The notes under the pieces are model-generated. The model ran no database searches and had not been told where the DNA came from. It saw only the letters and a list, made by a program, of their open reading frames with translations. Below, in pieces: positions 1,421-62,433 of a stretch of DNA of 64,000 nucleotides (within the stretch, counting starts at the first letter, position 1; the number at the start of each line of letters is the position of its first letter). Source of the DNA: an uncultured Lentisphaerota bacterium (GTDB lineage: Bacteria; Verrucomicrobiota; Kiritimatiellia; CAIQIC01); the NCBI GenBank assembly GCA_903889245.1, contig CAISWQ010000038.1, forward strand, positions 68,763-132,762. Reading direction: 5' to 3'. The translations under genes were made by a program, and so were the position numbers.

Positions 1421-3189
1421 AACACCATCTCTATCATGCCGCCATTCTGCTGTCCGTGATGTTACGGGCGGCCGGTGCCGCCGGGACATCCTACGACCTC
1501 TATCAGCCGGCGGTGAAGCACGTCACGATCCACGAGGGCCAGCTCGCGCCGGGGCATTTCGCCTATAACCACATGGCGTCGGTGGAATGGTTCGACGGCC
1601 AGTTCCATTGCGTCTGGGGCGCGCACGCCGAAACGCATCTGGAAGGCAAGCCGGGCCAGCTCAACATCTGGGCGACGAGTCCGGATTTCGAGACGTGGAG
1701 CGCGCCGCAGCCGCTGGCGCATACGGGCGCGCATGCGCTGGCGCGCGATCCGCAGTGCGTGCAATGGCAGCCGAACCTGCTGAACTATCACGACCGCCAG
1801 CTCTGGTGCGTGTGGTCGTTCAACAGCAAGAACACCGAACTCGACGGGCTCTGGTTGAGCACGCTGGACAAAAGTTCCAAGGCTTGGAAACACCGGCGCA
1901 TCCAGCGGCGGCAGGAGGCCAACGGCGTGCCGTGTTCCATCTTCGCGAGCCAGAATCCCGTACTGCTCGCCTCCGGCCGCGTGCTCGCGCCGGTGACCCT
2001 GAACTACCGTGGCGGCAGCACCAACTCTGTCCGGCGCTGGAACGCCTGCTTCTATACCGATGATGGCGGCGCGACGTGGGCCTGCTCGAACCCGATCAGT
2101 TCCGTGGACGATGCCGAGGCGCAGTGGGAGCCGTTCTTCTATGAGCAGGCCGATGGGAAAATCCGCGCCTACATGCGCAACTTCACCAAGGGCGTCGCCT
2201 ATCCCACGCACTGGCGGCTGACGACCACCGGCACCGGCGCGGCCAAGGGCACGCCGGTCAGATTCCCGGACGACCCGGTTTATTCATTCATGGAGACGGT
2301 CAACTGCCGCCCGCAGATTTTCCGACTCGAAGGCGGCCGCTACTGCCTGCTGCAGCAGGATGCGTTCGTGAACCACCGCGACTACTCGACGCGGCTGAAT
2401 ATCGCGCTGAACTTCAGCCGCAGCGGCGCGGACGATTTCGTCGCCGGCCCGCCGGTCTCGCGGCCGGAGGTGATCAGTGCCTACCCGCAGGGCGTCGCGC
2501 ATGGCGGCAACCTCTACCTCGCCTACAGCGCCGGGCCTGGCAACGAGGCGCGCAGCATCGAGGGCGCGATCGTCACGCCCGCGCCGCGCGGCGCTGTCCA
2601 CTACGTCTGGCCGCGCTCGAAGGAACTGATCAAGATGCAGGAAGAGAAGGACGCGGCCGGCAAAAAGAAAGTCGTCCGCACCAATCCCGACGCGCGCACG
2701 GCGCTGCCGAAGATCAAGACGGTGGACCAGCGCAAGATGATCCAGTTCAGCGCGCGCGCCAGCGCCGGCGTTGACCTCGATCCGGTTGATTTCGCCGCCG
2801 GCCAGTCGCTGGCTTTTAAGTTTGAGACCAAGGTACTGCGGCTGCAGCCGGTCGGGCGGCTGGTCTTCTGCTCGCTTGGCGACCGCTTCCCGATCCGGCT
2901 GGGCATGATGGCCAACCGGCCCGACCAGCTCTATGTCTACACGCGCAACCAGTGGGAGCCGGTCTGCGCTTTCCCGATGCAGCAGTGGCACACGGTCCAG
3001 CTCACCGTGCGCGGCGCGGACTTCTCGGTGGCCGTGGATAGCCAGCCGGCAAAAACTTTTCCGAATCCGCTCGTCAACCCGACGCCGCGCCTCTATCTGG
3101 GCGACGGCTTCGAGGTGGACTATGTCTACAGCCTGTCCGGCTCCGAGTTCCTGGTGGACCTCGGCTCGCTGAGCAGCGAGGTGAAGTGA
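1417..3189 (+). CDS. secreted BNR/sialidase-like (six-bladed beta-propeller glycosidase-like) protein
   Basis: N-terminal signal peptide MKHHLYHAAILLSVMLRAAGAAG. There are repeated S/T-x-D-x-G-x-T/W-W Asp-box-like segments (TDDGGATWACS, FHCVWG, LWCVWS). The start overlaps the previous stop. Confidence 0.55.
   Translation: MKHHLYHAAILLSVMLRAAGAAGTSYDLYQPAVKHVTIHEGQLAPGHFAYNHMASVEWFDGQFHCVWGAHAETHLEGKPGQLNIWATSPDFETWSAPQPLAHTGAHALARDPQCVQWQPNLLNYHDRQLWCVWSFNSKNTELDGLWLSTLDKSSKAWKHRRIQRRQEANGVPCSIFASQNPVLLASGRVLAPVTLNYRGGSTNSVRRWNACFYTDDGGATWACSNPISSVDDAEAQWEPFFYEQADGKIRAYMRNFTKGVAYPTHWRLTTTGTGAAKGTPVRFPDDPVYSFMETVNCRPQIFRLEGGRYCLLQQDAFVNHRDYSTRLNIALNFSRSGADDFVAGPPVSRPEVISAYPQGVAHGGNLYLAYSAGPGNEARSIEGAIVTPAPRGAVHYVWPRSKELIKMQEEKDAAGKKKVVRTNPDARTALPKIKTVDQRKMIQFSARASAGVDLDPVDFAAGQSLAFKFETKVLRLQPVGRLVFCSLGDRFPIRLGMMANRPDQLYVYTRNQWEPVCAFPMQQWHTVQLTVRGADFSVAVDSQPAKTFPNPLVNPTPRLYLGDGFEVDYVYSLSGSEFLVDLGSLSSEVK
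1873..1891. repeat. single copy of palindrome AGTTCCAAGGCTTGGAAAC inside the CDS
   Basis: Exact 15-bp core TTCCAAGGCTTGGAA, translated KAWK in frame. Confidence 0.6.
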
Positions 3190-7327: not shown

Positions 7328-7329
7328 AG

Positions 7330-7473
7330 TTTTCCAGGGATTGGAAAACACAACGCCGGTTTTTCCAGGGATGGGAAGATTTCGCGCCCAGCTTTTCCAA
7401 GCCTTGGAAACTCTCGCTGAATTTTTCCCGAGGCCTGGAAAAAGCCGCCGTGAATTTTCCGGGCCTTGGAAAA
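7330..7473. repeat. array of 5 palindromic units (TTTTCCARGNNTGGAAAA-like) at 30-32 bp period
   Basis: The units start at about 7330, 7362, 7393, 7423 and 7455. Copies 3 and 5 are near-perfect; copies 2 and 4 are degenerate. Confidence 0.9.
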
Positions 7474-11346: not shown

Positions 11347-11397
11347 TTTTTCCAAGGGTTGGAAAAATTTCCGGCGTTTTTTCCAAGGCTTGGAAAA
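11347..11397. repeat. palindrome doublet (2 units, 31 bp apart)
   Basis: TTTTTCCAAGGGTTGGAAAAA and TTTTTTCCAAGGCTTGGAAAA, about 45 bp upstream of the PEP-CTERM gene start. Confidence 0.9.
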
Positions 11398-13734: not shown

Positions 13735-13761
13735 CTGACCGCGGGCCGGTCGGTTTCTTTT
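13735..13761 (+). terminator. weak intrinsic terminator candidate
   Basis: A 5-bp GC stem GACCG-CGGGC-CGGTC is followed by GGTTTCTTTT, downstream of the PEP-CTERM gene. Confidence 0.3.
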
Positions 13762-13837
13762 GGCAGGCGGTGGTTGCAGTGCATGCCACTGGATAGCCGG
13801 GGGAAACACTGGGTCGCGACGCGCAGGCATATTGCCC

Positions 13838-14497: not shown

Positions 14498-14678
14498 CAA
14501 GCCCCGCACCCAACGGGCGCATACAAGTTTTTTCGCATCAGGGGGAATCCCCGCGCAATAGGAACCGGCCCGCTCCGTTATGAATGGATGGCATTGGCCC
14601 TGCGCTGGTGACCACAGGCGAGCAGATGAACTTCACCCGTTCGTTGTCGCCGTTGGTGCCGGGAAGCTGGCTGCTGGG

Positions 14679-14730
14679 TTTTCCAATGCTTGGAAAAAGC
14701 GCTGATGCCACTTTCCAATCCTTGGAAAAA
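14679..14730. repeat. palindrome doublet (2 units, 32 bp apart)
   Basis: TTTTCCAATGCTTGGAAAAA and CTTTCCAATCCTTGGAAAAA, 50-100 bp upstream of the GH78 start. The 57-bp unit including its spacer is about 85% identical to the unit inside sulfatase 17624-17676. Confidence 0.9.
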
Positions 14731-14779
14731 CTCGCCGGCGCGGTATGACCACGACCCCGTTACGTCCGGGAAAGGGACT

Positions 14780-17575
14780 ATGAAAACTGTCTGCCGGGTG
14801 CTGGTGTGCGTGGCCGCGCTGCTTTCATGCGCGGCGGCGGAGACGGAGTTGCGAGTGGTGGAGTTGACGTGCGAACACGCCCGTGATCCGCTGGGCATCG
14901 CGCTGCGCGCGCCCCGCTTGAGCTGGCAGTTGGTGTCTGCCGCGCGCGGGCAGAGCCAGACGGCGTACCGGATTCTGGCGGCGCGCAGCCGGGAGGCGCT
15001 CGCGGCGGGGCGTGGCGACGCGTGGGATTCCGGCAAGGTGGCCTCGGCGGGAAGTGTGCTGGTGCCATGCGGCGGGAAGCTGCCCAAGGCTGGCGAGCGC
15101 GTCTGGTGGCAGGTGCAAGTCTGGGATCGGGAGAACCGCGCTTCGCCGTGGTCGGAGCCGGCGTTCTTCGAGGTCGGCCTGCTCAACGCGGCAGACTGGG
15201 GTGGTGCGCAGTGGATCCGGCTTGCCGGCGATCCGCGCTCCTCGGAACTTGCCGAGCGCAAGCTACAGACGAAAAACATGAAGGCGCCCGTGACACGTCG
15301 CGCGTTTCCCGCGCCGCTGTTGCGGCGCGAATTTGCGGTGCGGCAGGGAGTGGCGCGCGCCCGCGCCTATGTCTGTGGCTTGGGCCTGCATGAGTTGTTC
15401 ATCAATGGCCAGCGGATGGGCCATGATGTTTTGCAGCCGGCGGTAACGACGTATGACGAGCGTGCGTTCGCCGTTGCCTATGATGTGACGGCGGCGCTCA
15501 CGCCGGGACGCAACGCGATGGGGCTGGCGCTGGGCAACGGCTTCTTCGGCCAGAATCTGGCGTTCACCGTGAATTTCCTGCACTGGGGCCCGCCGGTGGC
15601 ACTGGCCAAACTCGTCATTGAGTATGGCGATGGCACCAGCGAGACGATCATCAGCGATGCCGCTTGGCACGCGGGCACCGGGCCGGTGGTCTTCGACAAT
15701 CTCTATGCCGGCGAAAGCTTCGACGCGCGGCTCGCCGTGGACGGCTGGTCACGGGCCGGCTTTGATGACAAAACTTGGAAAACCGTCGAGGTGGTGCCTG
15801 CGCCGACGAAGCGCGTCGAGATGCAAATGCTCCAGCCGTGCCGACGGATCAGCGAACTCAAACCGGTGAGCGTCAAGCGGACACCGGATGGCCGCTGGTT
15901 GGTGGATCTGGGCCGCAACATCGCCGGCTGGGTCCGTTTGCGGGTGACGCAGCCGGCGGGTACGCGCCTCACGTTGCGTTTCGCCGAAATTTTGAGCCAC
16001 GACGGTACGCGGTTGGAGACGGGCTCCACGGGCCACTTCGCCACCGGCTGCGAGCAGGCCGACCTCTACGTCTGCCGCGGCGGCGGCGTGGAAACGTGGG
16101 AGCCGCGCTTCACCTATCACGGTTTCCGTCACGTGGAAATCGCCGGTTGCGCCACGGAGCCGGATGTGACCGGCGTCGTGGTCAATACGGCGTTGGAGGC
16201 GCAGGGTGCCTTCACCTGCCCGGACCCGCTGCTCAAGCGCATCTATGATGTTTCGCTCTGGACGATCGAGGGCAACCTCCACGGTACGACCGAGGACTGT
16301 CCGCACCGCGAGCGGTGCGCGTGGCTTGGCGATGCGCATGCACAGGCGGCGACCACGCTGCTGAACTACAAGGCAGCGCCGCTCTTCGCCAAGTTCATGG
16401 ACGATGTCGAGACCGTGCTCGGGCGCGGCGGCCAGACCTACGAGAAAAAGCCGGCCACGCCCGGTATTCCGTGCAACATCGCCGTCGGCCGGCGGCTGTG
16501 TCAGGAGGCGCGCCCCGACTGGGGCGTGGCGGTCGTCCTGCTGCCGTGGGAGGTCTATCGCTACACCGGCGACGACAGCGTGATCCGCACCCACTATCCG
16601 CTGATGACGCGGTGGGTGGACTATGTATCGGCAATGGCCGTCGAGGACATCGTCAACCAAGGTTATGGCGACTGGTGTCCGCCCGGCGGCAACGAGCACA
16701 TCGAATGCCCCGTGCCGCTCTCCTCGACGGCGTTGCATATCGCCGCGCTGCGGTTGATGGCCGACGCCGCGCGTCTGCTGGAGAAGCCGGCGGAGGCCGA
16801 ATGTTTTGCGGCTGCGGCCCAGCGCTTCCACGCGGCCTTCAACCGGCGCTTCTACGATGTCAAGGCGCACTCCTACGGCAGCCAGACGGCCAATGTGCTC
16901 GCGCTGCGCTTTGGTCTGGCGCCGGAGGGCGCGCGGCTGGCGGTCGGCGCCGCGCTGGCGCGCGAGGTGGGCGAGCGCCATCAGGGCCATCCGTTCATCG
17001 GCATCCATGGCGGCGTTGGACTCTTTACGCTGTTGGGCGATACCGGTCATGCCGATGTCGCGTGGCGCGCGCTGAACGTGGCCGGCTATCCGGGCTTCAA
17101 GTTTGTGCTCGGCCTGGGCCTGACCACGTGGCCGGAACGCTATGACGCCGACTTTGATCCGGCCACCGCCCGCTCGCTCAATCACCCGATGCAGTCGGGT
17201 TTCGCCACGTGGTTCCATGAAGCGGTCGGCGGCCTGCGCCCGCTCGCGCCCGGCTTCCGCCAGTTCGAACTGCGCCCGCAGATGATGCGTTGGCTCGACG
17301 CGGCGCGCGTCGAGCACCGCTCGCCCTACGGCGCGATCATCAGCGACTACCACCGCGCAGGCGGCAATATGCACTGGAGCGTCACCGTGCCCGTGGGCAC
17401 CGAAGCCTTCGTCACGCTACCGGCCGACAACGCCGACGCTGTGCGCGAGTCCGGCCAACCGCTCGCGCAAGCCCGCGGAATTTCCGCCGTCCGCGCCGCA
17501 AACCAAACGGTGGGTTTCACGCTCGCCTCTGGTAGTTTTGCTTTTGTGTTGCCGTTAGCCAGCGCAGGGAAATAA
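14780..17575 (+). CDS. alpha-L-rhamnosidase, glycoside hydrolase family 78
   Basis: Signal peptide MKTVCRVLVCVAALLSCAAA. The N-terminal RLSWQL...QTAYRI block, the DCPHRERCAWLGD block (GH78 DCPxRxER-GW-GD region) and a C-terminal beta-sandwich are clearly paralogous to the gene at 47282. Confidence 0.8.
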   Translation: MKTVCRVLVCVAALLSCAAAETELRVVELTCEHARDPLGIALRAPRLSWQLVSAARGQSQTAYRILAARSREALAAGRGDAWDSGKVASAGSVLVPCGGKLPKAGERVWWQVQVWDRENRASPWSEPAFFEVGLLNAADWGGAQWIRLAGDPRSSELAERKLQTKNMKAPVTRRAFPAPLLRREFAVRQGVARARAYVCGLGLHELFINGQRMGHDVLQPAVTTYDERAFAVAYDVTAALTPGRNAMGLALGNGFFGQNLAFTVNFLHWGPPVALAKLVIEYGDGTSETIISDAAWHAGTGPVVFDNLYAGESFDARLAVDGWSRAGFDDKTWKTVEVVPAPTKRVEMQMLQPCRRISELKPVSVKRTPDGRWLVDLGRNIAGWVRLRVTQPAGTRLTLRFAEILSHDGTRLETGSTGHFATGCEQADLYVCRGGGVETWEPRFTYHGFRHVEIAGCATEPDVTGVVVNTALEAQGAFTCPDPLLKRIYDVSLWTIEGNLHGTTEDCPHRERCAWLGDAHAQAATTLLNYKAAPLFAKFMDDVETVLGRGGQTYEKKPATPGIPCNIAVGRRLCQEARPDWGVAVVLLPWEVYRYTGDDSVIRTHYPLMTRWVDYVSAMAVEDIVNQGYGDWCPPGGNEHIECPVPLSSTALHIAALRLMADAARLLEKPAEAECFAAAAQRFHAAFNRRFYDVKAHSYGSQTANVLALRFGLAPEGARLAVGAALAREVGERHQGHPFIGIHGGVGLFTLLGDTGHADVAWRALNVAGYPGFKFVLGLGLTTWPERYDADFDPATARSLNHPMQSGFATWFHEAVGGLRPLAPGFRQFELRPQMMRWLDAARVEHRSPYGAIISDYHRAGGNMHWSVTVPVGTEAFVTLPADNADAVRESGQPLAQARGISAVRAANQTVGFTLASGSFAFVLPLASAGK

Positions 17576-17586
17576 TCAACCTCACC

Positions 17587-19026
17587 ATGAAAACATTGCC
17601 TGCCATTCTTACGGTGTTTTGCGTTTTTCCAATGCTTGGAAAAAGTGCCGACTCCACTTTCCAACCCTTGGAAAAACCGCCGCGCCCGAACATCGTCTAT
17701 ATCCTCGCCGATGATCTTGGCTTCGCCGACGTGGGTTTCCACGGGCCGGAGATCAAGACGCCGCACATCGACAAGCTCGCCGCCGCCGGCACGAAGCTGG
17801 AAGCGTTCTACGTCCTGCCGGTCTGCACGCCGACGCGCTCGGCGCTGATGACCGGCCGCTACCCGATCCGCTACGGCCGCCAGTACAACGTCATCCGCCC
17901 CGGCTCGCAGGTCGGGCTCGCGCTCGAAGAGCGCCTGCTGCCGCAGGCCCTGCGCGAGGCCGGCTACGCGACGGCGCTGTGCGGCAAGTGGCACCTTGGC
18001 GATTTCAAGGCGGAATATCTGCCGATGGCGCGCGGCTTCGAGCACCAGTTCGGCTTCTGCTCGCACGGCGAAAAATTCACGCACTTCCCGAAAGGCGACT
18101 GCGGCTTGATGCGCGACCAGAAGCCGATCACCGAAGAAGGCTACCTCGCGCACATGACCGCCAACGAGGCGATCCGCCAGATCGAACAGCGTGATGTGAA
18201 CAAGCCGCTCTTCCTCTACGTCGCGTTCAACGCGGTACACAATCCGCTGGAGTGTCCGCCAGAATATGCCAAACCCTATGCAGCGCTCGGCCCGACGCGC
18301 AGCCTCTACGCTGGCATGACCGCCGCGATGGATGAGGACATCGGGAAAATCCTCGAGGCTATCGGGCGCGCCGGCATGGCCAGCAACACGCTCATCATCT
18401 TCCACAGCGACAACGGCGGGCTGACCACCAAGGGCAAGATCGCCAGCAACGCGCCGCTGCGCGGCGGCAAGGGCTCGCTCTATGAGGGCGGCGTCCGTGC
18501 CTGCGCCTGCGCCACGTGGCCCGTCCATATCCCGGCCGGCGCGGCGCTCAAGGAGCCGCTGCACGTCGTGGACTGGTATCCCACGCTGCTCAAGCTCGCG
18601 GGCGCCGCGCTCGAGCAGAAGCAACCGCTCGATGGACGCGATATCTGGCCGGTGCTCACCCAGAACAAACCTTCGCCGCACGATGTGCTCCTGCTCAACA
18701 CCGTCGGCCGCACCGGCGCCGTGCGCATGGGCGACTGGAAGCTCGTCCGCAATGGCAAGTGGGACGACGACGAGGACAGCAGCGGCGCGAAGCCGACGCG
18801 CGAGGAGAAGCAGAAGCAGCGGCTGGCGCGGCGCGACGCGCCCGACACCTTCGAGCTGTTCAACCTCGCGCAGGACCTCGGCGAAAAAAATAATCTGGCC
18901 CAGCAGCAACCCGACAAGGTGAAGGAACTCACCGCGCGGCTGGACGCCTTCGCCAAGGAGGCGGTCCCGCCGGACCTGGGGCCGCGGCCCGCCGGCGCGA
19001 AGAAGGGCAAGACTTCCGAAAAATGA
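17587..19026 (+). CDS. sulfatase (arylsulfatase-like, formylglycine-dependent)
   Basis: IVYILADDLGFADVGFHG, the CTPTRSALMTGRYP C-x-P-x-R motif, and GKWHLG. Confidence 0.9.
   Translation: MKTLPAILTVFCVFPMLGKSADSTFQPLEKPPRPNIVYILADDLGFADVGFHGPEIKTPHIDKLAAAGTKLEAFYVLPVCTPTRSALMTGRYPIRYGRQYNVIRPGSQVGLALEERLLPQALREAGYATALCGKWHLGDFKAEYLPMARGFEHQFGFCSHGEKFTHFPKGDCGLMRDQKPITEEGYLAHMTANEAIRQIEQRDVNKPLFLYVAFNAVHNPLECPPEYAKPYAALGPTRSLYAGMTAAMDEDIGKILEAIGRAGMASNTLIIFHSDNGGLTTKGKIASNAPLRGGKGSLYEGGVRACACATWPVHIPAGAALKEPLHVVDWYPTLLKLAGAALEQKQPLDGRDIWPVLTQNKPSPHDVLLLNTVGRTGAVRMGDWKLVRNGKWDDDEDSSGAKPTREEKQKQRLARRDAPDTFELFNLAQDLGEKNNLAQQQPDKVKELTARLDAFAKEAVPPDLGPRPAGAKKGKTSEK
17624..17676. repeat. palindrome doublet embedded in the sulfatase 5' coding region (translated FPMLGKS....FQPLEK)
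   Basis: TTTTTCCAATGCTTGGAAAAA and CTTTCCAACCCTTGGAAAAA, 32 bp apart, lying between the signal peptide and the mature sulfatase domain. Confidence 0.9.
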
Positions 19027-19036
19027 AAGGCACACC

Positions 19037-20512
19037 ATGAATTCCCGTCGTGATTTTCTGAAACTCGCCGGCCTCGGCGCGGTCGGCGCCGCGCTTTTTC
19101 CAAGGGTTGGAAAAAGTGCGGCCCCGGTTTTCCAGGGCTTGGAAAAAGGCAAGCGCCCGAGCGTGTTGTTCCTCATCGTGGACGACATGACGACGACGCT
19201 CGGCTGCTACGGCGACCGTGACGCGCGTACGCCGCACATGGATGCGCTCGCCGCGCGCGGCGTCCGCTTCGACCGCGCCTACACGCAATTCTCGCTCTGC
19301 AATCCCTCGCGCTGCTCGTTCCTCACCGGCTGCTACCCGGAGCGCACGAAGGTGTTCGATCTCGTCACGAGTTTGCGCGTGGCGCTGCCGGACGAGGTGA
19401 CGCTGCCGCAGCACTTCAAGAACGCCGGCTACACCGCCGGCCGCATCGGCAAGGTCTTCCACGTGCCCGATCCGAAGACCAAGCCCGATGTCACGCTGGG
19501 GGTGGCACTGCACAAGGATCAGGCGATCCTCGACGAGGCCAAGCTCGCCGAGCGCAGCGAGGGCGACCTTTCCGATCCGCCGCACAAGTCGGGGCGGGAA
19601 GGCAATCAATACAACCGTTGCTATGCGCCGTCACCGCATCCCGACAAGGATTTCACCGACTACCAGATCGCCGAGGAGGCGCTCGCGACGCTGGAGCAGT
19701 TCAAGGACAAGCCGTTCTTCCTCGCGGTCGGTTTCATCCGTCCGCACACGCCCTACGTGGCGCCGCGCCGGTTCTTCGACGCCATTGATCCAACGAAGAT
19801 CGCCATGCCCGCCTTCTATCAGTCCGGCGGCGAGGATCGCGCGAAAATTCCGAACCCCGCGCTGCGGCCGAACAACAATGTCTTCAGGTTCGCCGCGCCG
19901 TCGCCCAAGGAAGCGCGCGAGGCGCGTCGCGCCTATCACGCTTCGACCGCGTGGGTGGATTCCCAGGTCGGCCGCGTGCTCGCCAAGCTCAAGGAGCTGA
20001 AACTCGACGAGAACACCTACGTGCTGCTCACCGGCGACCACGGCTACCAGCTTGGCGAGCACGGCCTGTGGGCGAAGCAGACGCTGTTCGAGGAGGGCAC
20101 GCACGTGCCGCTGCTCGTCGCCGGGCCCGGCATCAAGCCCGGCACCTGTACGGGCCTCGTCGAGCAGGTGGATATTTTCCCGACGCTCGCCGCGCTCGCG
20201 GGGCTAGACATCCCGAAGAGCGTGCAAGGCATGTCGTTGAAGGAGCAGATCGCTGACCCAACCAAGGCGGGCAAGCCGGCGGTCTTCAGCACGATGGTCT
20301 CGACGCACACCAAGCTGATGGGACGCAGCGTGCGCGACGAACGCTTCCGTTACATCGAGTGGGATGAGGGCCGCGCCGGCCGCCAGCTCTATGACCACGA
20401 GGGCGATCCTCACGAGTTGACCAACCTGGCCGATCTGCCGCAACATGCCGCGCGTGTCGGGCAGATGCACGCCCTGCTGGCGCAGCACCTTGAAAAAGTA
20501 AGGAGCAAGTGA
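19037..20512 (+). CDS. sulfatase (iduronate-2-sulfatase-like), Tat-secreted
   Basis: Tat motif SRRDFLKLAGLGA. VLFLIVDD and CNPSRCSFLTGCYP (C-x-P-x-R). Confidence 0.9.
   Translation: MNSRRDFLKLAGLGAVGAALFPRVGKSAAPVFQGLEKGKRPSVLFLIVDDMTTTLGCYGDRDARTPHMDALAARGVRFDRAYTQFSLCNPSRCSFLTGCYPERTKVFDLVTSLRVALPDEVTLPQHFKNAGYTAGRIGKVFHVPDPKTKPDVTLGVALHKDQAILDEAKLAERSEGDLSDPPHKSGREGNQYNRCYAPSPHPDKDFTDYQIAEEALATLEQFKDKPFFLAVGFIRPHTPYVAPRRFFDAIDPTKIAMPAFYQSGGEDRAKIPNPALRPNNNVFRFAAPSPKEAREARRAYHASTAWVDSQVGRVLAKLKELKLDENTYVLLTGDHGYQLGEHGLWAKQTLFEEGTHVPLLVAGPGIKPGTCTGLVEQVDIFPTLAALAGLDIPKSVQGMSLKEQIADPTKAGKPAVFSTMVSTHTKLMGRSVRDERFRYIEWDEGRAGRQLYDHEGDPHELTNLADLPQHAARVGQMHALLAQHLEKVRSK
19095..19147. repeat. palindrome doublet embedded in coding (translated FPRVGKS....FQGLEK)
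   Basis: TTTTTCCAAGGGTTGGAAAAA and GTTTTCCAGGGCTTGGAAAAA, 32 bp apart, immediately after the Tat signal. Confidence 0.9.
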
Positions 20513-20514
20513 CC

Positions 20515-22188
20515 ATGAAGAAGATCATCCTGTCGGTGTTCGTATTCAGTCTCGCCTGCGGCGCCGCGCCGCTGAAGGTCGTCAACGGCGACTTCAGCGA
20601 TCTCGCCGGGCTGACGCAGAAGAGCGATGGCTGGTATGCCGGCCTGCCGAAGGGCTGGACCGGTTCCGAGGGCAGCTATGCCCTCCACACCAAGCGCGGC
20701 GCGACCGCGCCGACGTGCAATCCCTCCACGCTGGGCTTCTTCCGCCAGCAGGTCGGCGTGCTCGAGGCGGCGTCGGACGTCACGCTGACGTTCGATGTTT
20801 CCGATCCTTGGAAACCGGACGTGCTGCTCAACGCCGCGATTCTCGACGGGGACTTGATGGAATTGGCCACCGGCGATTTCAAGGTCGGCACAAAGCAGCA
20901 GCTTGTGGCGCGCGGCGTCCCCGCCGGCACGACGATCATCATCGGTTATCAAGCCGCGAAGTCCACGCCGGGGCTCGACAACGTTTCCGTCGCGGTGCAG
21001 CCGGCGACGGCCGCGCCCGCCGGCGTGGCGGCGAAGGCGAACGCGAAGATCACCGTCGCGAGCTACTACTTCGGCAACTACCATCTGGGCGATCCGCGCA
21101 ACGTGAAAATGAAAGGCAGGGATTGGTGCGAGTGGGAGCTGGTCAAGGCCGCCAAGCCGCGCTTCCCCGGCCACCACCAGCCGAACGTGCCGCTCTGGGG
21201 CTACACCGATGAGTCGGACCCGAAGGCGATGGAGCAGAAGATCGCCGCCGCCGCCGACCACGGCATCGAGGCGTTTATCTTCGACTGGTATTACTACGAT
21301 GACGGCCCGTTCCTCGACCGGCCAATCGATATCGGTTTCCTCAAGGCCGCGAACAACAGCCGCCTCAAGTTCTCCTTCATGTGGGCAAATCACGACTGGA
21401 TCGAGCTGCATCCCTACACGAAGGGCGCACCGCGCAAGGTGCTGTTCCCCGGCAAGGTTTCGCCGGAGAGCTTCGAGAAAATCTGCGCGCACGTCATCAA
21501 CGACTACTTCAAGCATCCGTCCTACTGGAAGATCGAGGGCCAGCCCTACTTCTCGTTCTATGACCTGACCCGGCTGCTGGAGAATTTCGGCTCGGTGGAG
21601 GCGGCGCGCGCCGCGCTGGATAAATTCCGCGCGGCGGTCAAGGCCGCCGGCTTCCCCGGCTTGCACCTCAACGCCGTGGCGTGGGGCCAGCCGATTTTGC
21701 CCAACGAGAAAGTGCCGGTGGATTCCGCCAAGCTCGTGCGCGACCTCGGCTTCGATTCCGTCACCTCCTACGTCTGGATTCATCACGTGCCGCTGCCGCA
21801 GCAGGCGACCGACTACAACCTCGTCCGCGACGGATACTTCAAATATTGGAACAGTGCGGTGAAAAAATTCGGCCTGCCATTCTTCCCGAACGTGACGATG
21901 GGGTGGGATCCCAGCCCGCGCTGCGATCAGCGCGACAAGTTCGACGCGTCCGGCTACCCGTTTACCAACACCATCGGCGGCAACACGCCGGAGCGGTTCA
22001 AGGAAGCGCTCGCGATGACCAAGCGTCGCCTGCTCGCGCAACCGGAGTCCGCCGGCCCGCGCATCCTGAATATCAACTGCTGGAACGAATGGACCGAGGG
22101 TAGTTACCTTGAGCCCGACCAGCGCAACGGAATGAAATATCTTGAGGCCGTCCGCGACGTCTTCGGCGTCCACGCGGCGGCCCCGTGA
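20515..22188 (+). CDS. WbsX/GH99-like family protein (putative glycoside hydrolase), secreted
   Basis: Signal peptide MKKIILSVFVFSLACGAA. Conserved blocks FIFDWYYYDD, FMWANHDW and NINCWNEWTEGSYLEPD are shared with the next gene. The family assignment is from memory and not verified. Confidence 0.55.
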   Translation: MKKIILSVFVFSLACGAAPLKVVNGDFSDLAGLTQKSDGWYAGLPKGWTGSEGSYALHTKRGATAPTCNPSTLGFFRQQVGVLEAASDVTLTFDVSDPWKPDVLLNAAILDGDLMELATGDFKVGTKQQLVARGVPAGTTIIIGYQAAKSTPGLDNVSVAVQPATAAPAGVAAKANAKITVASYYFGNYHLGDPRNVKMKGRDWCEWELVKAAKPRFPGHHQPNVPLWGYTDESDPKAMEQKIAAAADHGIEAFIFDWYYYDDGPFLDRPIDIGFLKAANNSRLKFSFMWANHDWIELHPYTKGAPRKVLFPGKVSPESFEKICAHVINDYFKHPSYWKIEGQPYFSFYDLTRLLENFGSVEAARAALDKFRAAVKAAGFPGLHLNAVAWGQPILPNEKVPVDSAKLVRDLGFDSVTSYVWIHHVPLPQQATDYNLVRDGYFKYWNSAVKKFGLPFFPNVTMGWDPSPRCDQRDKFDASGYPFTNTIGGNTPERFKEALAMTKRRLLAQPESAGPRILNINCWNEWTEGSYLEPDQRNGMKYLEAVRDVFGVHAAAP

Positions 22189-30045: not shown

Positions 30046-31443
30046 TCAATGTTTGGCGCCCTAAACGCCGCGGATTTCCAAGCCTTGGAAAAATCCGCGG
30101 AAAAAGTTCCAAGCCTTGGAAAAAATGAGCCGGAAATTTCCAAGGCCTGGAAAAACGGCGGAAATAATTTCCAATCCTTGGAAAACGTCGCCGGTGTGCA
30201 GGCCGTGCTTGCGCACATCCAGCAGGGTTTTCCGCAATCCATCAAGGTGGACACGAAGGGCGACGCCGATGTCGTCGGCCTGCCGCAGCCCTATACGGCG
30301 CCGTGCATCAAGGAGGGTTTCCAGCAGCAGTTTTACTGGGATACCTATTTCATCAACCAAGGGCTGCTGCGCATCGGCATGGCGGAGCAGGCGCGGCACA
30401 ACGTCAACAATCTACTGCTGCTGACCGACCAGTTCGGCATCGTGCCCTCGGCCAACCGGCGCTCGATGGCGAACCGGTCGCAGACGCCGTTTCTCTCGCA
30501 GATGGTGCGCGACTCCTACGAGCACCAGCCCGACGCCGCATGGTTGAAGGGCGCCGTTGCGGTGCTGAAGAAGGATTACCAGTTCTGGATGACGAAACGG
30601 CTCGCGCCGTGCGGGCTGAACCGCAGCGGCAACGACGCGACGGAGCAGTACCTGATGGCCTTTTATTATTACCTCGCGAAGGAGCGCTTCAAGGGGCTCG
30701 CGCTGGCGACGAAGGCGGAGCAACTCGCGTTCAGCAGCCAGGCGTTGAGCGAGGCGGAGACGTGGGACTTCACGCCGCGCTACGACCGCCGCGCCGAGGA
30801 ATTCTGTCCGCTCGACCTCAACAGCAATCTCTATATCTACGAGATGAACTTCGCGTGGTTCAGCAAGATTCTCGGCGCTGGCGAGGAAACGGCGTGGCTG
30901 GCGAAAGCGGAACAGCGCAAGGCGTTGATGCAGGAGTTGCTCTGGAACGAGAAGCTCGGCTGCTATGGCGACTATGACTGGAAGAACAGGAAGCAGGGCG
31001 ACCTCGTCAGTTGCGCCACGCTCTATCCGCTGGTCGCCGGTTTCGCCACGCCGCAGCAGGCGGAGCGGGTCGTCGCGAAGATGCGCGCGGTGCTCGAATG
31101 CGAGCACGGACTCGCGACGTGCGAGCAGCGCAAACATCCGTTCTCCTATCAGTGGGACTTCCCCAACGCGTGGCCGCCGCTACAACTGCTCGCGATCCAG
31201 GGGCTGGACCGCTACGGCTTCAAGGCCGATGCCCAGCGCATCGCCCGCAAGTACGTGGACACCGTCGTGCGGAATTTTGTGAAGACCGGCGACTTGTGGG
31301 AGAAGTACAACGCGGTCACGGGAACGATTGAGGTGAAGGACGAATACCAGATGCCGCGCATGATGGGCTGGACCGCCGGCGTGTTTGTCTGCGCGGCCGA
31401 CTATCTGCACCTGCGAAACAAAACCGGAGAACACAAACCATGA
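30046..31443 (+). CDS. trehalase-like glycoside hydrolase (GH37); start codon uncertain
   Basis: QQQFYWDTYFINQGLL matches trehalase signature 1. QWDFPNAWPPLQ matches signature 2 (QWD-x-PN-x-W-x-P). DLNSNLYIYE is also present. The first in-frame ATG at 30046 would place the palindrome array in coding; the alternative start is GTG near 30196. The N-terminal region is short compared with typical trehalases. Confidence 0.6.
   Translation, partial: SMFGALNAADFQALEKSAEKVPSLGKNEPEISKAWKNGGNNFQSLENVAGVQAVLAHIQQGFPQSIKVDTKGDADVVGLPQPYTAPCIKEGFQQQFYWDTYFINQGLLRIGMAEQARHNVNNLLLLTDQFGIVPSANRRSMANRSQTPFLSQMVRDSYEHQPDAAWLKGAVAVLKKDYQFWMTKRLAPCGLNRSGNDATEQYLMAFYYYLAKERFKGLALATKAEQLAFSSQALSEAETWDFTPRYDRRAEEFCPLDLNSNLYIYEMNFAWFSKILGAGEETAWLAKAEQRKALMQELLWNEKLGCYGDYDWKNRKQGDLVSCATLYPLVAGFATPQQAERVVAKMRAVLECEHGLATCEQRKHPFSYQWDFPNAWPPLQLLAIQGLDRYGFKADAQRIARKYVDTVVRNFVKTGDLWEKYNAVTGTIEVKDEYQMPRMMGWTAGVFVCAADYLHLRNKTGEHKP
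30074..30186. repeat. array of 4 palindromic units at 31 bp period
   Basis: ATTTCCAAGCCTTGGAAAAA, AGTTCCAAGCCTTGGAAAAAA, AATTTCCAAGGCCTGGAAAAA and AATTTCCAATCCTTGGAAAAC. Consecutive copies are read in different frames. Confidence 0.9.
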
Positions 31444-35576: not shown

Positions 35577-35629
35577 CTTTTCCAAGCCCTGGGAAAGGCG
35601 GCCTTGTCTTTTTCCAAGGTTTGGAAGCT
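35577..35629. repeat. palindrome doublet (degenerate, 32 bp apart)
   Basis: CTTTTCCAAGCCCTGGGAAAG and TTTTTCCAAGGTTTGGAAGCT, 25-80 bp upstream of the TolB-like start. Confidence 0.8.
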
Positions 35630-43317: not shown

Positions 43318-43454
43318 GTTTTCCAAGGCTTGGAAAATTTTCCGCGCGTTTTTCCAAGGCTTGGAAAAGTGGCGCCGGGTTGTTGCTGGCGGCGGGCCTG
43401 CTTTTTCCAATGCCTGGAAAAACGGCTGCCGCGACTTTCCAATCCTTGGAAAAC
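43318..43454. repeat. 4 palindromic units arranged as two doublets
   Basis: Units at about 43318, 43349, 43402 and 43435. The first two are noncoding; the last two are read as FPMPGKT....FQSLEN at the sulfatase N-terminus. Confidence 0.9.
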
Positions 43455-50517: not shown

Positions 50518-50568
50518 TTTTTCCAAGGGTTGGAAAACGAAACACGAATTTTTCCAAGCCTTGGAAAC
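50518..50568. repeat. palindrome doublet (31 bp apart)
   Basis: TTTTTCCAAGGGTTGGAAAAC and TTTTTCCAAGCCTTGGAAAC, beginning 6 bp after the GH78 stop and 25-75 bp upstream of the URO-D-family start. Confidence 0.9.
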
Positions 50569-51743: not shown

Positions 51744-53387
51744 ATGATGGCAACCTCGCGACGCGACTTCCTGAAATTGGCCGGCCTCGGCGCGCTGGCT
51801 TTTCCAAGCCTTGGAAAAACTGCCCCCGCCGGTTTCCAACCCTTGGAAAAGTCGCGCCCCAACTTTCTCATCATCCTCGCCGACGACATGGGGTTCTCGG
51901 ACGCGGGCTGCTACGGCAGTGACATCCGCACGCCGCACCTCGACCAACTCGCCGCGCGCGGGTTGCGGTTCACGCAGTTCTATAACACCGGCCGCTGCTG
52001 GCCGACGCGCAGCGCGCTGATCACCGGCTACTACCCGCAGCAGATTCACATGGACCCGCCGCGCGGCCGGCTGCCGCCGTGGACGCGTACGCTGGCACAT
52101 CGCCTCAAGCCGCTCGGCTACCGCAGCTATCACTCCGGCAAGTGGCACGTGAACGGCGCGCCGCGCCCCGTGGCCGAGGGCGGGTTCGAACACTCCTACG
52201 ACCTGGAAGACCACGACCGGAATTTCAATCCGCAGAAAATTTTGCAGGACGACCAGCCGCTGCCGCCGGTGGCGAAGGGCAGCGGTTATTACACGACCAC
52301 GGCGTTCTGTGACCACGCGATCAAATGCCTGAAGGAGCACGCGGAAAAATATTCTGCGCAGCCGTTCTTCTCTTATCTCGCGTTCACGGTGCCGCATTTC
52401 CCGTTGCAGGCGCCGCCGGAAGACATCGCGCGCTACCGTGACCGTTACCTCATGGGCTGGGACAAGGTGCGCGAGGAGCGCTGGCAGAAATTGCGGGAGC
52501 TGAAGATCGTCGCTTGCGGCCTCGCGCCGCTGGAGCCGGGTTTTGCGCCGCGCTACTTCAAGCCGGATGTGCTCGCCAAGCTGGGACCCGGCGAGTCGAA
52601 GCACGCGGTGCCATGGGTGCAGCTGACGGACGAGCAGAAGCAGTATCAGGCGACGAAGATGGCGATCCACGCCGCGATGATCGACCGCATGGATGCCGAG
52701 ATCGGCCGCGTGCTTGCGCAGGTGCGCGCGATGGGCGCCTGGGAGAACACGGTCATCTTCTTCCTTTCCGATAACGGCACCGATGCGACGCTGCTCGTGC
52801 GCGGCGATGGCCACGACCGCGCGGCGGCGCCCGGCTCGGCGGGCTCGTTCCTCTGCCTCGGCCCCGGCTGGTCGAGCGCGGGCAATGCGCCGTTCCGCCG
52901 CCACAAGGTTTGGACGCACGAGGGCGGCATCTCGACGCCGCTGATCGTACACTGGCCCAAGGGCATTGCCGCGCAGGGCGAGCTGCGGCGCGACGTGGGG
53001 CACGTCACTGATTTCGTACCGACGCTGCTCGAGCTTGCTGGCGATACGGCCGCGCCGGCGGCGGGCGCGCCACCGCTGCCGGGCCGGAGTCTCGTCCCGG
53101 CGTTTGGCAGGGACGGCAGCGTGACGCGCGACGAGGTCTTCTTCCATCACGAGGGCAATCGCGCGCTCCGGCAGGGCAACTTCAAGCTTGTCTCGGCGTG
53201 CGAAGACCACAATGAATGGGAACTATTCGATCTGGCGGGCGACCGGTGCGAGCAGCGCAATCTCGCCGCTGCGCAGCCGGAGCGGGTCCGCGCCATGGCC
53301 GCGCGCTGGCAGCAGCTGCAGGAGCAGTTCACGCGCGACGCCGGTCCGGATCTGCCGTTTGCGAAGAAGACCAGAAACGATGATTGA
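51744..53387 (+). CDS. sulfatase (arylsulfatase-like), Tat-secreted
   Basis: Tat motif SRRDFLKLAGLGALA. FLIILADDMGFSDAGCYG and CWPTRSALITGYYP (C-x-P-x-R). Confidence 0.9.
   Translation: MMATSRRDFLKLAGLGALAFPSLGKTAPAGFQPLEKSRPNFLIILADDMGFSDAGCYGSDIRTPHLDQLAARGLRFTQFYNTGRCWPTRSALITGYYPQQIHMDPPRGRLPPWTRTLAHRLKPLGYRSYHSGKWHVNGAPRPVAEGGFEHSYDLEDHDRNFNPQKILQDDQPLPPVAKGSGYYTTTAFCDHAIKCLKEHAEKYSAQPFFSYLAFTVPHFPLQAPPEDIARYRDRYLMGWDKVREERWQKLRELKIVACGLAPLEPGFAPRYFKPDVLAKLGPGESKHAVPWVQLTDEQKQYQATKMAIHAAMIDRMDAEIGRVLAQVRAMGAWENTVIFFLSDNGTDATLLVRGDGHDRAAAPGSAGSFLCLGPGWSSAGNAPFRRHKVWTHEGGISTPLIVHWPKGIAAQGELRRDVGHVTDFVPTLLELAGDTAAPAAGAPPLPGRSLVPAFGRDGSVTRDEVFFHHEGNRALRQGNFKLVSACEDHNEWELFDLAGDRCEQRNLAAAQPERVRAMAARWQQLQEQFTRDAGPDLPFAKKTRNDD
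51800..51850. repeat. palindrome doublet embedded in coding (translated FPSLGKT....FQPLEK)
   Basis: CTTTTCCAAGCCTTGGAAAAA and GGTTTCCAACCCTTGGAAAAG, 32 bp apart, directly after the Tat signal. Confidence 0.9.
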
Positions 53388-58198: not shown

Positions 58199-59547
58199 CA
58201 ACCCGGCAACGTTTCCAAGGATGGGAAATTGAAAGCAGTGGTTTTTCCACGCCTTGGAAACTGCTGCCGCTCGCGCTGCTGGCGGTGTGGCCGGCGCTGG
58301 CCAGTGACACGATCAAGGCGGGCGTGGGCATGGTGGACATCACACCGGCCGAGCCGGTCGTGCTGGCGGGTTCGCCGACCAGGCTGAAGTCCACGGCGGT
58401 CGGCACGCATCTCTATGCGAAAGCGCTGGTGCTGGCCGGCAATGGGTAGCGGGTGGCGATCGTCACCTTGGACACGTTGAAATATCCCGTGGACTGCGTC
58501 GTGCGGGCGCGCCAGGCCGTCGAGCAGGCCACCGGCATCGCAGCGAGCAACGTCATCATCTGTGCCTCGCACACGCACCGCGGTCCGCTGTGGCCCTCTT
58601 ACAAGGATCAACTCGTGACGCCCATCGCCGACGCGGTGGCGCAGGCGGCGCGCGACCTCGCGCCGTGTACGCTCGGTGTGGCGCAGGGCAGGGTCGAGGG
58701 CGTGAGCAAATGCCGCCGCGTGATCAAGGAAGGGCACGCTTGGAACCGCTGGCAGTTGCCGGCGGCGGAGCAGGAAAAATATCCGGCGGAGAGCGCGCTC
58801 GATCCCGCAGTGGGGGTACTGGCGGTGACCGGCCAGGACGGAAAGTATAAGGCAGTCGTGTTCAACTTTGCGTGTCACGCCGCCAACACGCGCGCCCTCG
58901 CGGTCTCGGCGGATTTTCCGGGCGATGCGCAGCAGGTGGTGCAAAAGAAATTGGGCTATGCCGTGCCCACGCTGTTTCTCACCGGCGCCTGTGGCGATGT
59001 GAATCCCATCTACAGCGCGAAACGCGAATTGTTCGGCGAGAAGCTCGGTGGCGAAATCATGCGCTGCCTGGGCCGGCTTGAACCGATCCAGAAGCCGACG
59101 CTGGCGCTGGAATGCCGCGAGTTGCACATGCCGGGCCGCGAGCAGCCGGAATTCAAGGAGGCGGAGGTGATCCGCAACTGGCCCGGCCAGCTTGAGCACT
59201 ACAGAAAATCGTTCAGCGACATGAAGCAGCGGGCCAAGCCGGCCTATCCATTTTTCATCACCAGCCTGCGTCTGGGCGAGGACTTCACCATCGTGACCAA
59301 TCCCGACGAGCTGTTCTGCGAAATCGGTTTGAGCATCAAGCAGCAGTCGCCCTTCAAGCACACGCTGGTCGTCGAGCAGGTCAACGGCGCGCACGGCTAC
59401 ATCCCCACGGCGAAGGCGTTCGCCGGCGGCAGCTACGAGACGTGGTTCGGCGAGCACTCCTATCTCACCACGCGCGCCGGCGACATCATCGAAAAGGAAT
59501 CGCTGGACATCCTGAATCGCTTGAAGCACGCTGAACACAAGCCCTAG
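58195..59547 (+). pseudogene. neutral/alkaline ceramidase-like gene interrupted by an in-frame TAG at 58447-58449 (pseudogene, sequencing error or stop-codon readthrough)
   Basis: The two track ORFs 57748..58449 and 58453..59547 are in the same frame. Read together they align across the TAG with the intact paralog at 60948: ...AKALVLAGNG*RVAIVTLD versus ...AQAVIIASGGKRLAIVGVD. The downstream segment ICASHTHRGP matches the ceramidase catalytic region. Confidence 0.55.
58211..58261. repeat. palindrome doublet (degenerate, 32 bp apart) at the 5' end of the ceramidase-like gene
   Basis: GTTTCCAAGGATGGGAAAT and GTTTTTCCACGCCTTGGAAAC. If the ATG at 58195 is the start, they are read as RFQGWEI....FSTPWK before the hydrophobic signal segment. 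Confidence 0.75.
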
Positions 59548-62315: not shown

Positions 62316-62433
62316 TTTTCCAAGGATTGGTCCCGACCTCGCAGCGCGTCGGGATTCCAAGCCTTGGGAAATCCCCGGCGCTTTTTTCCAAGCCTTGGAA
62401 AAAACGGCCGAAAATTTTCCAAGCCTTGGAAAG
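62316..62433. repeat. array of 4 palindromic units lying between convergent gene ends
   Basis: Units at about 62316 (degenerate), 62352, 62383 and 62414. The last two are near-perfect (TTTTTTCCAAGCCTTGGAAAAAA and ATTTTCCAAGCCTTGGAAAG). Confidence 0.9.

Follow-up and report, generated by a model that had tools for sequence, protein, structure and literature searches.

A stretch of 64,000 nucleotides from an uncultured Lentisphaerota bacterium (contig CAISWQ010000038.1; hereafter the window) carries a glycan-degradation cluster with three GH78 genes, five sulfatase genes and a GH127 gene. Four of the sulfatase genes contain the same short DNA palindrome twice, and this doublet separates the signal peptide from the mature domain and is read as FPxLGK..FQxLE[KN]. 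In the first of these genes, the segment 17620-17680 reads TTTTCCAATGCTTGGAAAAA-GTGCCGACTCCAC-TTTCCAACCCTTGGAAAAA, with palindromes at 17627-17641 and 17659-17673, and it is here that an earlier analysis of the letters and their open reading frames (ORFs), referred to as the sequence-only reading, had placed them. The linker translations of the four genes (FPMLGKSADSTFQPLEK, FPRVGKSAAPVFQGLEK, FPMPGKTAAATFQSLEN and FPSLGKTAPAGFQPLEK) agree with that reading as well. The two copies are spaced by 32 bp in all four genes, which puts them in different frames: copy 1 is read T|TT CCA Nnn nTT GGA AAA and copy 2 TTC CAA NNN TTG GAA. Two of the eight copies deviate from the palindrome, by one mismatch each (19130 and 43405).

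The active-site motifs of the four enzymes (CTPTRS, CNPSRC, CNPSRT and CWPTRS) show the C-x-P-x-R pattern of the formylglycine-dependent family S1. The Pfam domain Sulfatase (PF00884) was detected in three of them with E values of 2.7e-47, 7.8e-40 and 4.8e-50, and a precomputed match covers the gene at 17587. As the sequence-only reading had it, the genes fall into two subfamilies, with CTPTRS (17587) and CWPTRS (51744) on one side and CNPSR (19037 and 43380) on the other. As a measure of how far the subfamilies have diverged, the window genes are 28-43% identical to non-orthologous sulfatases of other contigs that bear the same N-terminal cassette of signal plus linker. Three of the four cassette-bearing window genes start 11-18 bp past the preceding gene. 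Sulfatases are abundant in the group, as published genomes of the Kiritimatiellales contain 480-521 sulfatase genes, which is about 8% of all genes, and most of the products have signal peptides (PMC6388578).

The start codons had been assumed to lie upstream of the doublet, and this holds for two of the four genes. The genes at 19037 and 51744 encode the motif S/T-R-R-x-F-L-K followed by a hydrophobic stretch (SRRDFLKLAGLG...), which also occurs in the relatives examined in loci L113 and L114. Because this twin-arginine translocation (Tat) motif lies 5' of the doublet, the starts of 19037, of 51744 and of these relatives must lie upstream of it. The gene at 17587 has no Tat motif and its signal is Sec-like. 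Its start is shared by independent gene calls, which come from public copies of this contig, and neither of the in-frame starts inside its doublet (ATG 17632 and TTG 17668) would leave a signal peptide. The start at 43380 is uncertain: only a TTG is available, the n-region is without charge, the nature of the signal is ambiguous and two more palindromes are located just 5'. The frame of this gene is open from 42201, and the sole upstream in-frame start, GTG 43212, would cross the second doublet (FPRLGK..SKAWK). The sequence-only reading listed the four sulfatases and overlooked a fifth in-ORF doublet (58213/58245), which is read in other frames as MTTRQR-FQGWE-IESSG-FSTPWK-LLPLALLAVWPALA and falls within the n-region of a Sec signal. 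The features of the window are compiled in Table 1.

Table 1. Doublet-bearing sulfatase genes and copies of the palindrome in the window
Feature	Coordinates	Strand	Remarks
S1 sulfatase gene (CTPTRS)	17587..19026	+	Short Sec-type signal MKTLPAILTVFCV 5' of doublet; start shared by independent gene calls (479 aa)
S1 sulfatase gene (CNPSR)	19037..20512	+	Tat signal MNSRRDFLKLAGLGAVGAAL 5' of doublet
Sulfatase gene (CNPSR)	43380-44858		Start uncertain (TTG only)
Sulfatase gene (CWPTRS)	51744-53387		Tat signal MMATSRRDFLKLAGLGALA 5' of doublet
32-bp doublet (TTCCAATGCTTGGAA / TTCCAACCCTTGGAA)	17627..17673	.	In sulfatase gene 17587-19026; read FPMLGK-SADST-FQPLEK
32-bp doublet	19098..19144	.	In sulfatase gene 19037-20512; read FPRVGK-SAAPV-FQGLEK; copy 2 with one mismatch (19130)
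32-bp doublet	43405..43451	.	In sulfatase gene 43380-44858; read FPMPGK-TAAAT-FQSLEN; copy 1 with one mismatch (43405)
31-bp doublet	43321..43366	.	Just 5' of TTG 43380; in-ORF doublet 53 bp away (five helical turns)
32-bp doublet	51802..51848	.	In sulfatase gene 51744-53387; read FPSLGK-TAPAG-FQPLEK
32-bp doublet	58213..58259	.	Sec n-region of ORF starting at 58195; read FQGWE..FSTPWK; gene not a sulfatase gene
Noncoding 32-bp doublet (14681/14713)	14681..14727	.	53 bp 5' of GH78 start 14780; within mini-ORF 14626-14748
Intergenic array, about five copies (two degenerate)	7332..7471	.	5' of histidine kinase gene
Intergenic 31-bp doublet	11350..11395	.	Ends 27 bp ahead of likely ATG 11422
Intergenic array, four copies, 31-bp period	30076..30183	.	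5' of trehalase-like glycoside hydrolase gene
Intergenic 32-bp doublet (copy 1 with two mismatches)	35580..35626	.	Ends 27 bp ahead of ATG 35653
Intergenic 31-bp doublet (50521/50552)	50521..50566	.	Between stop 50512 and ATG 50593
Array, three good copies and one degenerate copy (62318/62355)	62318..62431	.	Between convergent 3' ends (60948-62297 on +; LuxR-type response regulator gene ending at ~62477 on -)
Lone perfect palindrome	1875..1889	.	Inside BNR-repeat protein gene 1417-3189
Lone one-mismatch copy	20799-20813		Inside WbsX-like gene

Copies of the palindrome in the window

The palindrome TTCCAA-NNN-TTGGAA is built as 6-3-6 or 7-1-7. With at most one mismatch, TTCCAANNNTTGGAA matches 30 times in the 64 kb, whereas 0.05 matches are expected from 100 dinucleotide-preserving shuffles, of which the highest single one gave two. 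With the exception of two lone copies, the palindromes are grouped in arrays of two to five with start-to-start distances of 31 or 32 bp (Table 1), and the neighbour distances found in the window are 31/32, 53 and 63 bp. A density of about 0.5 palindromes per kb was observed in three stretches that had not been picked via the motif. The doublets that the sequence-only reading had cited as noncoding are indeed so, both the one 5' of the GH78 gene at 14780, for which independent gene calls give 931 aa, and the one following the stop codon at 50512; outside the sulfatase genes the doublet falls in all three frames. Moreover, the array in the convergent gap at the end of the window was confirmed by hand. 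The pattern in the four sulfatase genes is one local case among many, since the 15-base palindrome turns up about every 2 kb, within genes as well as between them.

Constraint on DNA and peptide

The sequence-only reading had held that the constraint is on the DNA. This view is supported by the codons, the orthologues and the permitted residues, and the encoded peptide is largely a tolerated by-product. Relative to the 16,650 codons of the window, the arms are made of rare codons (TTT 0.19, CCA 0.06, CTT 0.06, GGA 0.06, CAA 0.22 and TTG 0.12), and if the peptide is taken as given, the observed combination of synonymous codons has a probability of 5e-8 to 4e-7 per gene. Among the orthologues of the 17587 gene, L113 (78% identical) and L114 (59%) carry the doublet with perfect arms and L115 (64%) has one perfect palindrome. 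The identity at four-fold degenerate third positions between 17587 and these three genes is 0.54-0.60 (0.57-0.60 for L113 and L114), while the baseline among non-orthologous sulfatases is 0.40-0.57. Thus, the synonymous sites are near saturation, though the arms are intact. Furthermore, the x of FPxLGK in homologues is always a residue that an A-initial codon can encode (M, R, S or T), and position four holds one encoded by NTT (L, V or F); the variable linker residues are exactly those that the palindrome permits. L113 and L114 contain runs of two and four adjacent sulfatase genes, respectively, and each of these genes has at least one palindrome in its signal region.

Two orthologues that are 83% (L117; P0002) and 81% (L118; P0005) identical to 17587 have a plain Sec signal and no linker. 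The 2.9-kb contig of the former shows no palindrome even at two mismatches, and none is present in the 7.4-kb locus of the latter. Since the linker is absent from such close orthologues on motif-free contigs, it follows the genome and not the enzyme. In decayed cassettes (P0127 and P0254), peptide and DNA have been lost together.

Selection could also act on the peptide. FPxLGK-[ST]A..FQxLEK would then be a c-region plus linker peculiar to the sulfatase Tat signals of this lineage, and the palindrome would be incidental. The K-[ST]-A pattern of the spacer would fit a cleavage site, and both the frame and the 32-bp spacing are constant in all sulfatase cassettes seen. This uniformity may reflect a fit to the signal junction, or common descent with recombination among paralogues. 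An exhaustive search of 1.84 billion representative proteins with a 'signal plus linker' profile also points in this direction, because all of the matches (36 in total) that reach a recognisable mature domain have a sulfatase-type N-terminus. The sequence-only reading had named homologues that keep the peptide with divergent codons as evidence against a constraint on the DNA. This occurs once, in L116 (P0023; 64% identical to 17587), where FPLLGN and LPLVGK are retained, the codons have drifted (TTC CCG CTG CTG GGG AAT) and no palindrome is found in 5.6 kb. We read L116 as a case in which the peptide became a functional part of the signal and outlasted the constraint on the DNA. Against selection on the peptide stand the codon choice, with a probability of about 1e-7 per gene, the restriction of the variable residues to those allowed by the palindrome, the noncoding copies and those in all three frames, and the orthologues and decayed cassettes that have neither peptide nor motif. 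We consider it the least probable of all explanations.

Most of the other profile matches were short spurious ORFs across intergenic arrays. The profile search was nevertheless more useful than a word-indexed protein search with the N-terminal cassette, which gave mostly short fragments and spurious ORFs. Gene callers make such small ORFs from intergenic arrays because the palindrome is stop-free, and they have already entered the protein databases. For instance, the public 'hypothetical proteins' P0129, P0130, P0133, P0134, P0143, P0193, P0238 and P0249-P0268 are translated intergenic arrays (FQGLEK / FPSLGK / SKPWK).

Distribution, consensus and helical phasing

A scan of species-representative genomes with the exact doublet pattern yielded at least 109 stretches, and the cross-genome statistics given here are drawn from the stretches listed. 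Among these, the record titles name Kiritimatiellia, 'Lentisphaerae', Verrucomicrobiota and one Spartobacteria metagenome-assembled genome (MAG), the rest being labelled only 'uncultured bacterium', and the GC content of the motif genomes ranges from 49 to 73%. The motif recurs in many genomes labelled Kiritimatiellia or other bacteria of the Planctomycetes-Verrucomicrobia-Chlamydiae (PVC) group. From 212 array units, the wider consensus TTTTCCAAT-[G/C]-ATTGGAAAA (also TTTTCCAAT-S-ATTGGAAAA) was obtained. Conservation is limited to the palindrome and the flanking runs of T and A, and the spacers vary. An origin of the arrays by tandem duplication was rejected, as spacers next to each other are only slightly more similar than randomly paired ones (identity of 37% vs 29%). 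Likewise, a CRISPR-like array was ruled out by size (repeat of ~19 bp, spacer of ~12 bp), and integron attC-like sites were dismissed because the arrays occur in convergent gaps and genes and have no attC core.

After removal of one seeding 31/32 pair per locus, 89 of 119 distances between neighbouring copies in other genomes are 31 or 32 bp. The remaining 30 distances (21, 22, 30, 33, 43, 52, 62-64, 95 and others) group around multiples of 10.5 bp, with a Rayleigh R of 0.67 (p ~1e-6) and a mean phase of 1 degree. Conserved palindromes set whole helical turns apart, with spacers that are free to vary, are characteristic of dimers lined up along one side of the double helix, and the idea of a protein-binding palindrome, which the sequence-only reading had put forward, is plausible given this phasing. 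In four high-GC MAGs (64-70% GC), arrays with end copies 22 bp apart were found (L025 7580-7730, L064 5852-6002, L110 5495-5592 and L111 818-915). Those of L025 and L064, which derive from sheep-rumen Kiritimatiellae, are symmetric (22 - 30/31 - 31 - 31/30 - 22 bp), with two-turn ends and a three-turn interior.

The arrays do not favour a particular type of gap. Among the loci listed, there are 39 arrays for 98 and 38 for 86 tandem gaps (0.40 and 0.44 per gap), 19 for 50 divergent gaps (0.38) and 18 for 46 convergent gaps (0.39), figures that rest on crude gene calls. There is also no bias with respect to the direction of transcription, neither in the centre (TGA 47 vs TCA 45) nor in the arm changes (A>G 7 vs T>C 7). 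The array-to-start distance shows no peak across 138 arrays from all loci; a fixed distance, suggested by 27 nt in three window genes, was dropped for this reason. A start codon provided by the centre of the palindrome (TTCCA-ATG-) was rejected too, since only about 3 of 84 ATG-centred last copies lead into a plausible signal peptide.

These data bear on a possible action in the mRNA, by which rare-codon hairpins just behind the signal codons would slow translation or stabilise it and, between genes, protect or process transcripts. Compared with shuffled sequences, the predicted folds have a much higher stability (z -3.1 to -6.3), the arms do consist of rare codons and many window arrays lie 27-53 nt 5' of starts. 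However, the sequence is conserved rather than the pairing, with neither an asymmetry of direction nor a G-U-compatible excess, the arrays are as common in convergent as in divergent gaps, and no start-distance peak exists. Nor is the palindrome an intrinsic terminator: it is AT-rich, an A run comes after it on either strand, and in the interval 7000-20000 there are 10 terminator-like sites vs 9.7 expected. Rfam 15 gave no match in the window at the gathering score, and only sub-threshold look-alikes of miRNA precursors were seen on the four-copy array. The lack of a direction bias, the equal gap types and the lack of terminators together argue against an RNA element, a promoter-proximal operator and a terminator, and we regard a role in the mRNA as very improbable.

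Overlay on housekeeping genes

In other genomes, doublets were found deep inside the housekeeping genes mnmE (two doublets), aroB, trpF and tsaE. The proteins MnmE, AroB, TrpF and TsaE can be aligned to solved homologues across the doublet, with a length difference of at most 1-2 residues and none added. For example, SG-SNVWK-IADEI-FQTLE-K is matched by SG-PDSWK-IVQKH-LRTRS-K in MnmE of Thermotoga. As no residues are added in the four genes, the motif has been written into existing codons by substitution. The N-termini of the sulfatases are indecisive in this respect because signal regions vary in length anyway. A ~45-residue low-complexity stretch (LKATTHPGLRPPLPGRGSLEIPSVGGVPERRGGFSDSSRNDNSTRKS), which directly follows an intragenic doublet in an RlmN-like ORF (L101 3990-5117), resembles an insertion or the product of a frame error and in this differs from the four clean overlays.

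Both footprints of mnmE recur at matching positions among 120 MnmE orthologues (69-100% identity) that are labelled Kiritimatiellales, Pontiellaceae, Kiritimatiellaceae or Tichowtungia. The x of FPxLGK in these proteins is N (46), T (37), M (12), S (6), G (10), A (5), V (2) or D (1). Thus, residues whose codons can start with A (N, T, M and S) make up 101 of 120, and the conservative exchange of N for D is nearly absent. The mnmE palindromes were also seen in the DNA of the isolate Tichowtungia aerotolerans (CP047593.1) and partly in L121. Two 21-kb regions picked via mnmE (L119 and L121) contain 11 palindromes each, which is about 0.5 per kb as in the window; 21 of the 22 copies are intragenic and mostly read FQxLEK, and the two regions have orthologous sites in rsmE and mnmE in common. 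A third mnmE region (L120; 46% GC) has two copies in 14.7 kb and an mnmE gene without footprints, so the density varies between lineages. In L119 (13479) and L121 (13837), an epimerase gene shares the one-mismatch sequence TTCCAAGGCTCGGAA, which encodes VSKARK in an identical ADVSKARKKLGY segment. This is probably a peptide-driven look-alike and not the motif, and it illustrates that single near-matches can be false positives.

The overlay also bears on a mobile element. The sequence-only reading had considered a spreading palindromic element, that is, a selfish palindrome resembling repetitive extragenic palindromic (REP) sequences, their hairpin-forming doublets (REPINs) or MITEs (transposable elements of the miniature inverted-repeat type), which would have been inserted in frame into the sulfatase genes. 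Parallels exist in the Rickettsia palindromic elements (RPEs) and the intragenic REPs of Opitutus terrae. The motif is abundant between genes, the doublets fold into one long REPIN-like hairpin (-22 to -28 kcal/mol), the linker is missing from close orthologues, and intragenic REP dimers that encode 20-30 residues, many of them N-terminal, have been documented (PMC3733652). However, all four deep intragenic doublets that were aligned add no residues, and the mnmE positions are kept across an order and between genera. The 212-unit consensus has no GTAG or CGTC tag and only runs of T and A at its flanks. In addition, the arrays are not depleted in divergent gaps as REPs are, no transposase was matched among 30 window ORFs (Pfam, E <= 1e-5), the spacers within arrays are unrelated, and the sequence stays the same across 49-73% GC. 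An inserted element is therefore disfavoured and highly unlikely in our view.

The same evidence speaks to local functions, namely operators of a sulfated-polysaccharide regulon that act as a roadblock in the 5' coding region, or recombination sites that shuffle promoter and signal cassettes. The sequence-only reading had regarded the doublet as a conserved feature of secreted enzymes and had proposed both functions. The window is a glycan-degradation cluster in which kinase and response-regulator genes adjoin arrays, and the N-termini vary among close orthologues (Sec or Tat, with or without linker). Moreover, an orphan mini-ORF of 40 codons at 14626-14748 (MNFTRSLSPLVPGSWLLGFPMLGKSADATFQSLEKLAGAV*) reads as a decayed signal peptide plus linker. 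Of the 17 bases in the spacer of the doublet it contains, 13 agree with the spacer of the 17627 doublet, and the mini-ORF may be the remnant of a rearrangement at the doublet. Nevertheless, the motif has an equal density in and around the housekeeping genes of relatives (mnmE, rsmE, aroB, tsaE and trpF), and it is present in all types of gap, including those between convergent genes. The doublet is thus not peculiar to secreted enzymes, and this argues against a regulation in the 5' coding region that is specific to sulfatases. For an exchange of cassettes, the mini-ORF is the one anecdotal case, and any recombination between dispersed repeats would be a by-product rather than a function. Both local functions thus appear quite improbable.

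A putative DNA-binding system

We propose that the palindromes are phased binding sites for a putative dimeric, sequence-specific DNA-binding protein, which are tolerated at permissive coding positions, and we give this reading a probability of about 0.5. It builds on the observed abundance, phasing and wide distribution of the motif, on the constraint at the DNA level, and on insertion-free overlay at conserved positions. With distances of 31-32 bp (three turns) and, less often, 21-22 bp (two turns), two to six dimers would be placed on one face of the helix, as in cooperative or DNA-wrapping binders, for instance of the Lrp type. The sites are a genome-wide feature of many Kiritimatiellia-type genomes, held by purifying selection on the DNA, and in the four aligned genes they have been written by substitution where one of three stop-free readings (FPxLGK, FQxLE or SxxWK) is tolerated. 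An AT-rich motif that needs rare codons would be costly in the conserved coding sequence of a genome with 65% GC. It would thus be expected in spacers or, if none is available, in the coding stretch under the weakest constraint, which is the junction of signal peptide and mature protein. In the three window sulfatase genes that start 11-18 bp past the preceding gene, the doublet does lie in this junction. At this junction, FPxLGK-[ST]A would provide a Pro/Gly helix break after the hydrophobic core (c-region) together with a likely cleavage site. The spacer K-[ST]-A-x-x would offer small residues to the signal peptidase, and FQxLEK would form the first residues of the mature protein, both assignments resting on a predicted position of the cut.

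A more far-reaching version, which we put forward only tentatively, is that a lineage-specific protein occupies perhaps ~2,000 phased sites per genome and organises the nucleoid or global transcription. In this case, the sites would be kept in genes such as mnmE across the sampled Kiritimatiellales and would shape the signals of the sulfatases. The figure of ~2,000 copies was extrapolated from a density of about 0.5 per kb, taking a genome of 3.9 Mb.

Several points weigh against protein binding as the explanation. A binding protein was not found in a cursory look beside the longest arrays, where no neighbour gene recurred. The palindromes can fold as hairpins (z -3 to -6), though every palindrome necessarily does so. 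At its centre the motif has G/C or NNN, whereas Lrp-type sites have an A/T-rich centre. L116 keeps the peptide without the palindrome, and the K-[ST]-A pattern in the spacers of the sulfatase cassettes resembles selection at the peptide level. In principle, the arms could also have been kept perfect by gene conversion between copies instead of by selection. Moreover, the loci had been picked by the exact doublet pattern, and the gap statistics depend on crude gene calls. Finally, a density of 0.5 per kb and conserved intragenic sites suit a motif accumulated by drive equally well.

Such a drive-type motif is the main rival. It could, for example, serve DNA uptake through a receptor of the competence or pilus machinery, or be preferred by a repair or recombination system, much like the uptake sequences of Pasteurellaceae and Neisseria or the cyanobacterial HIP1. 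Its copies would arise by mutation and be fixed where they are tolerated. The density of about 0.5 per kb is near that of uptake sequences, of which there are 765-1,892 copies per genome with 34-65% in ORFs (PMC2817400). The overlay without a change in length, at poorly conserved positions and mostly in the one frame that gives FQxLE, would be expected from drive, as would a lineage-wide 'dialect', and a pseudopilin gene is present in the window. Against drive stand the perfect dyad symmetry of the motif, the phased arrays, which are hard to explain by drive on single sites, and the lack of a recognisable methyltransferase site. To our knowledge, phased doublets or arrays of up to six copies have not been reported for uptake sequences or for the cyanobacterial palindrome HIP1, and we know of no competence or uptake bias in Kiritimatiellia. 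Therefore, we consider drive unlikely, though it has to be taken seriously.

Comparison with known systems

The motif is another member of the highly iterated palindromes, and it is new in this variant form. Like HIP1 of cyanobacteria, it is a short perfect palindrome that is hyper-abundant across a lineage; it is over-represented, it occurs in and between ORFs, and its sites are conserved between genomes. The sites of HIP1 are also conserved between genomes, selection has been argued for them, a role in peptide or RNA was not found, and a role in chromosome or nucleoid organisation has been suggested (PMC5861425). The motif described here differs from HIP1 in its length (15-19 bp vs 8 bp), in having no obvious methyltransferase site, in its phased two- and three-turn doublets and arrays, as opposed to a periodicity of 10-90 kb, and in its host lineage within the PVC bacteria.

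The REP and RPE sequences are palindromic repeats as well, being mostly intergenic and also found inside ORFs. REP dimers encode about 20-30 residues, often at the N-terminus, and the verrucomicrobium Opitutus terrae is rich in REPs (PMC3733652). REPs carry an unpaired GTAG or CGTC tag and occupy mainly unidirectional and convergent gaps, while they are depleted in divergent ones (PMC3733652). In contrast, the motif shows neither tag nor divergent depletion, adds no residues in the four genes, whereas RPEs, intragenic REPs and MITEs do add residues (PMC3733652), and has positions conserved across genera and a sequence that is invariant across a wide range of GC.

Sites of Lrp are dyad-symmetric, 13-15 bp in length, bound by dimers and clustered on one face at two or three turns, and the DNA wraps around the oligomers (PMC2995911). 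The motif, with most distances at 31/32 and others at 21/22 bp, has this clustered one-face arrangement, and the likeness to the Lrp/AsnC family is one of arrangement alone. Natural Lrp sites are degenerate and limited to control regions, whereas the arms described here are nearly invariant, the copies number perhaps ~2,000, many of them are intragenic and the centre is not A/T-rich. The uptake sequences of Pasteurellaceae (USS) and Neisseriaceae (DUS) are similar in copy number and in the overlay on coding regions, where preferred frames, poorly conserved residues and a higher frequency of the encoded tripeptides have been described (PMC2817400). Symmetry and arrays set the motif apart from the uptake sequences, which are asymmetric and are not known to occur in phased arrays.

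No description of the motif, of palindromes in Kiritimatiellia or of the sulfatase signal peptides of this group was found in the literature searched. If a protein binds the palindromes, Kiritimatiellia would possess an unusually sequence-specific, array-forming and genome-wide DNA-binding system. The question is open to experiment because Tichowtungia aerotolerans, which is cultured and has a complete genome (CP047593.1), bears the sites. It would also be a clear natural case in which selection on DNA dictates protein, since the motif would spell whole c-regions of signal peptides as well as surface segments in housekeeping enzymes. For the sulfatases of these polysaccharide degraders, the prediction of start codons and signal peptides must allow for the motif.

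Additional features of the window

The ORF 58195-59547, which contains the fifth in-ORF doublet, has a good Sec signal and resembles its neighbour 60948-62297 (GVGMVDITP vs GFGQVDITP). It is broken by one in-frame TAG at 58447-58449 (..LAGNG*RVAIVTL..), which could indicate a pseudogene, a sequencing error or recoding; the half 3' of the TAG gave no Pfam match. The trehalase-like gene 30184-31443 matches the Pfam domain Trehalase only from profile position 113. Its frame is open through the four-copy array directly 5', and its N-terminus and start are ambiguous. An AAA_14/DUF4143 ATPase gene at 4402-5592 is unrelated to its glycan-degradation neighbours. Finally, the stretch 34000-40000 has a GC content of 0.51-0.56, compared with ~0.65 elsewhere, and may have been acquired horizontally; it contains genes for a PD40-repeat protein and for a PGAP1-like alpha/beta hydrolase of 1,078 aa.

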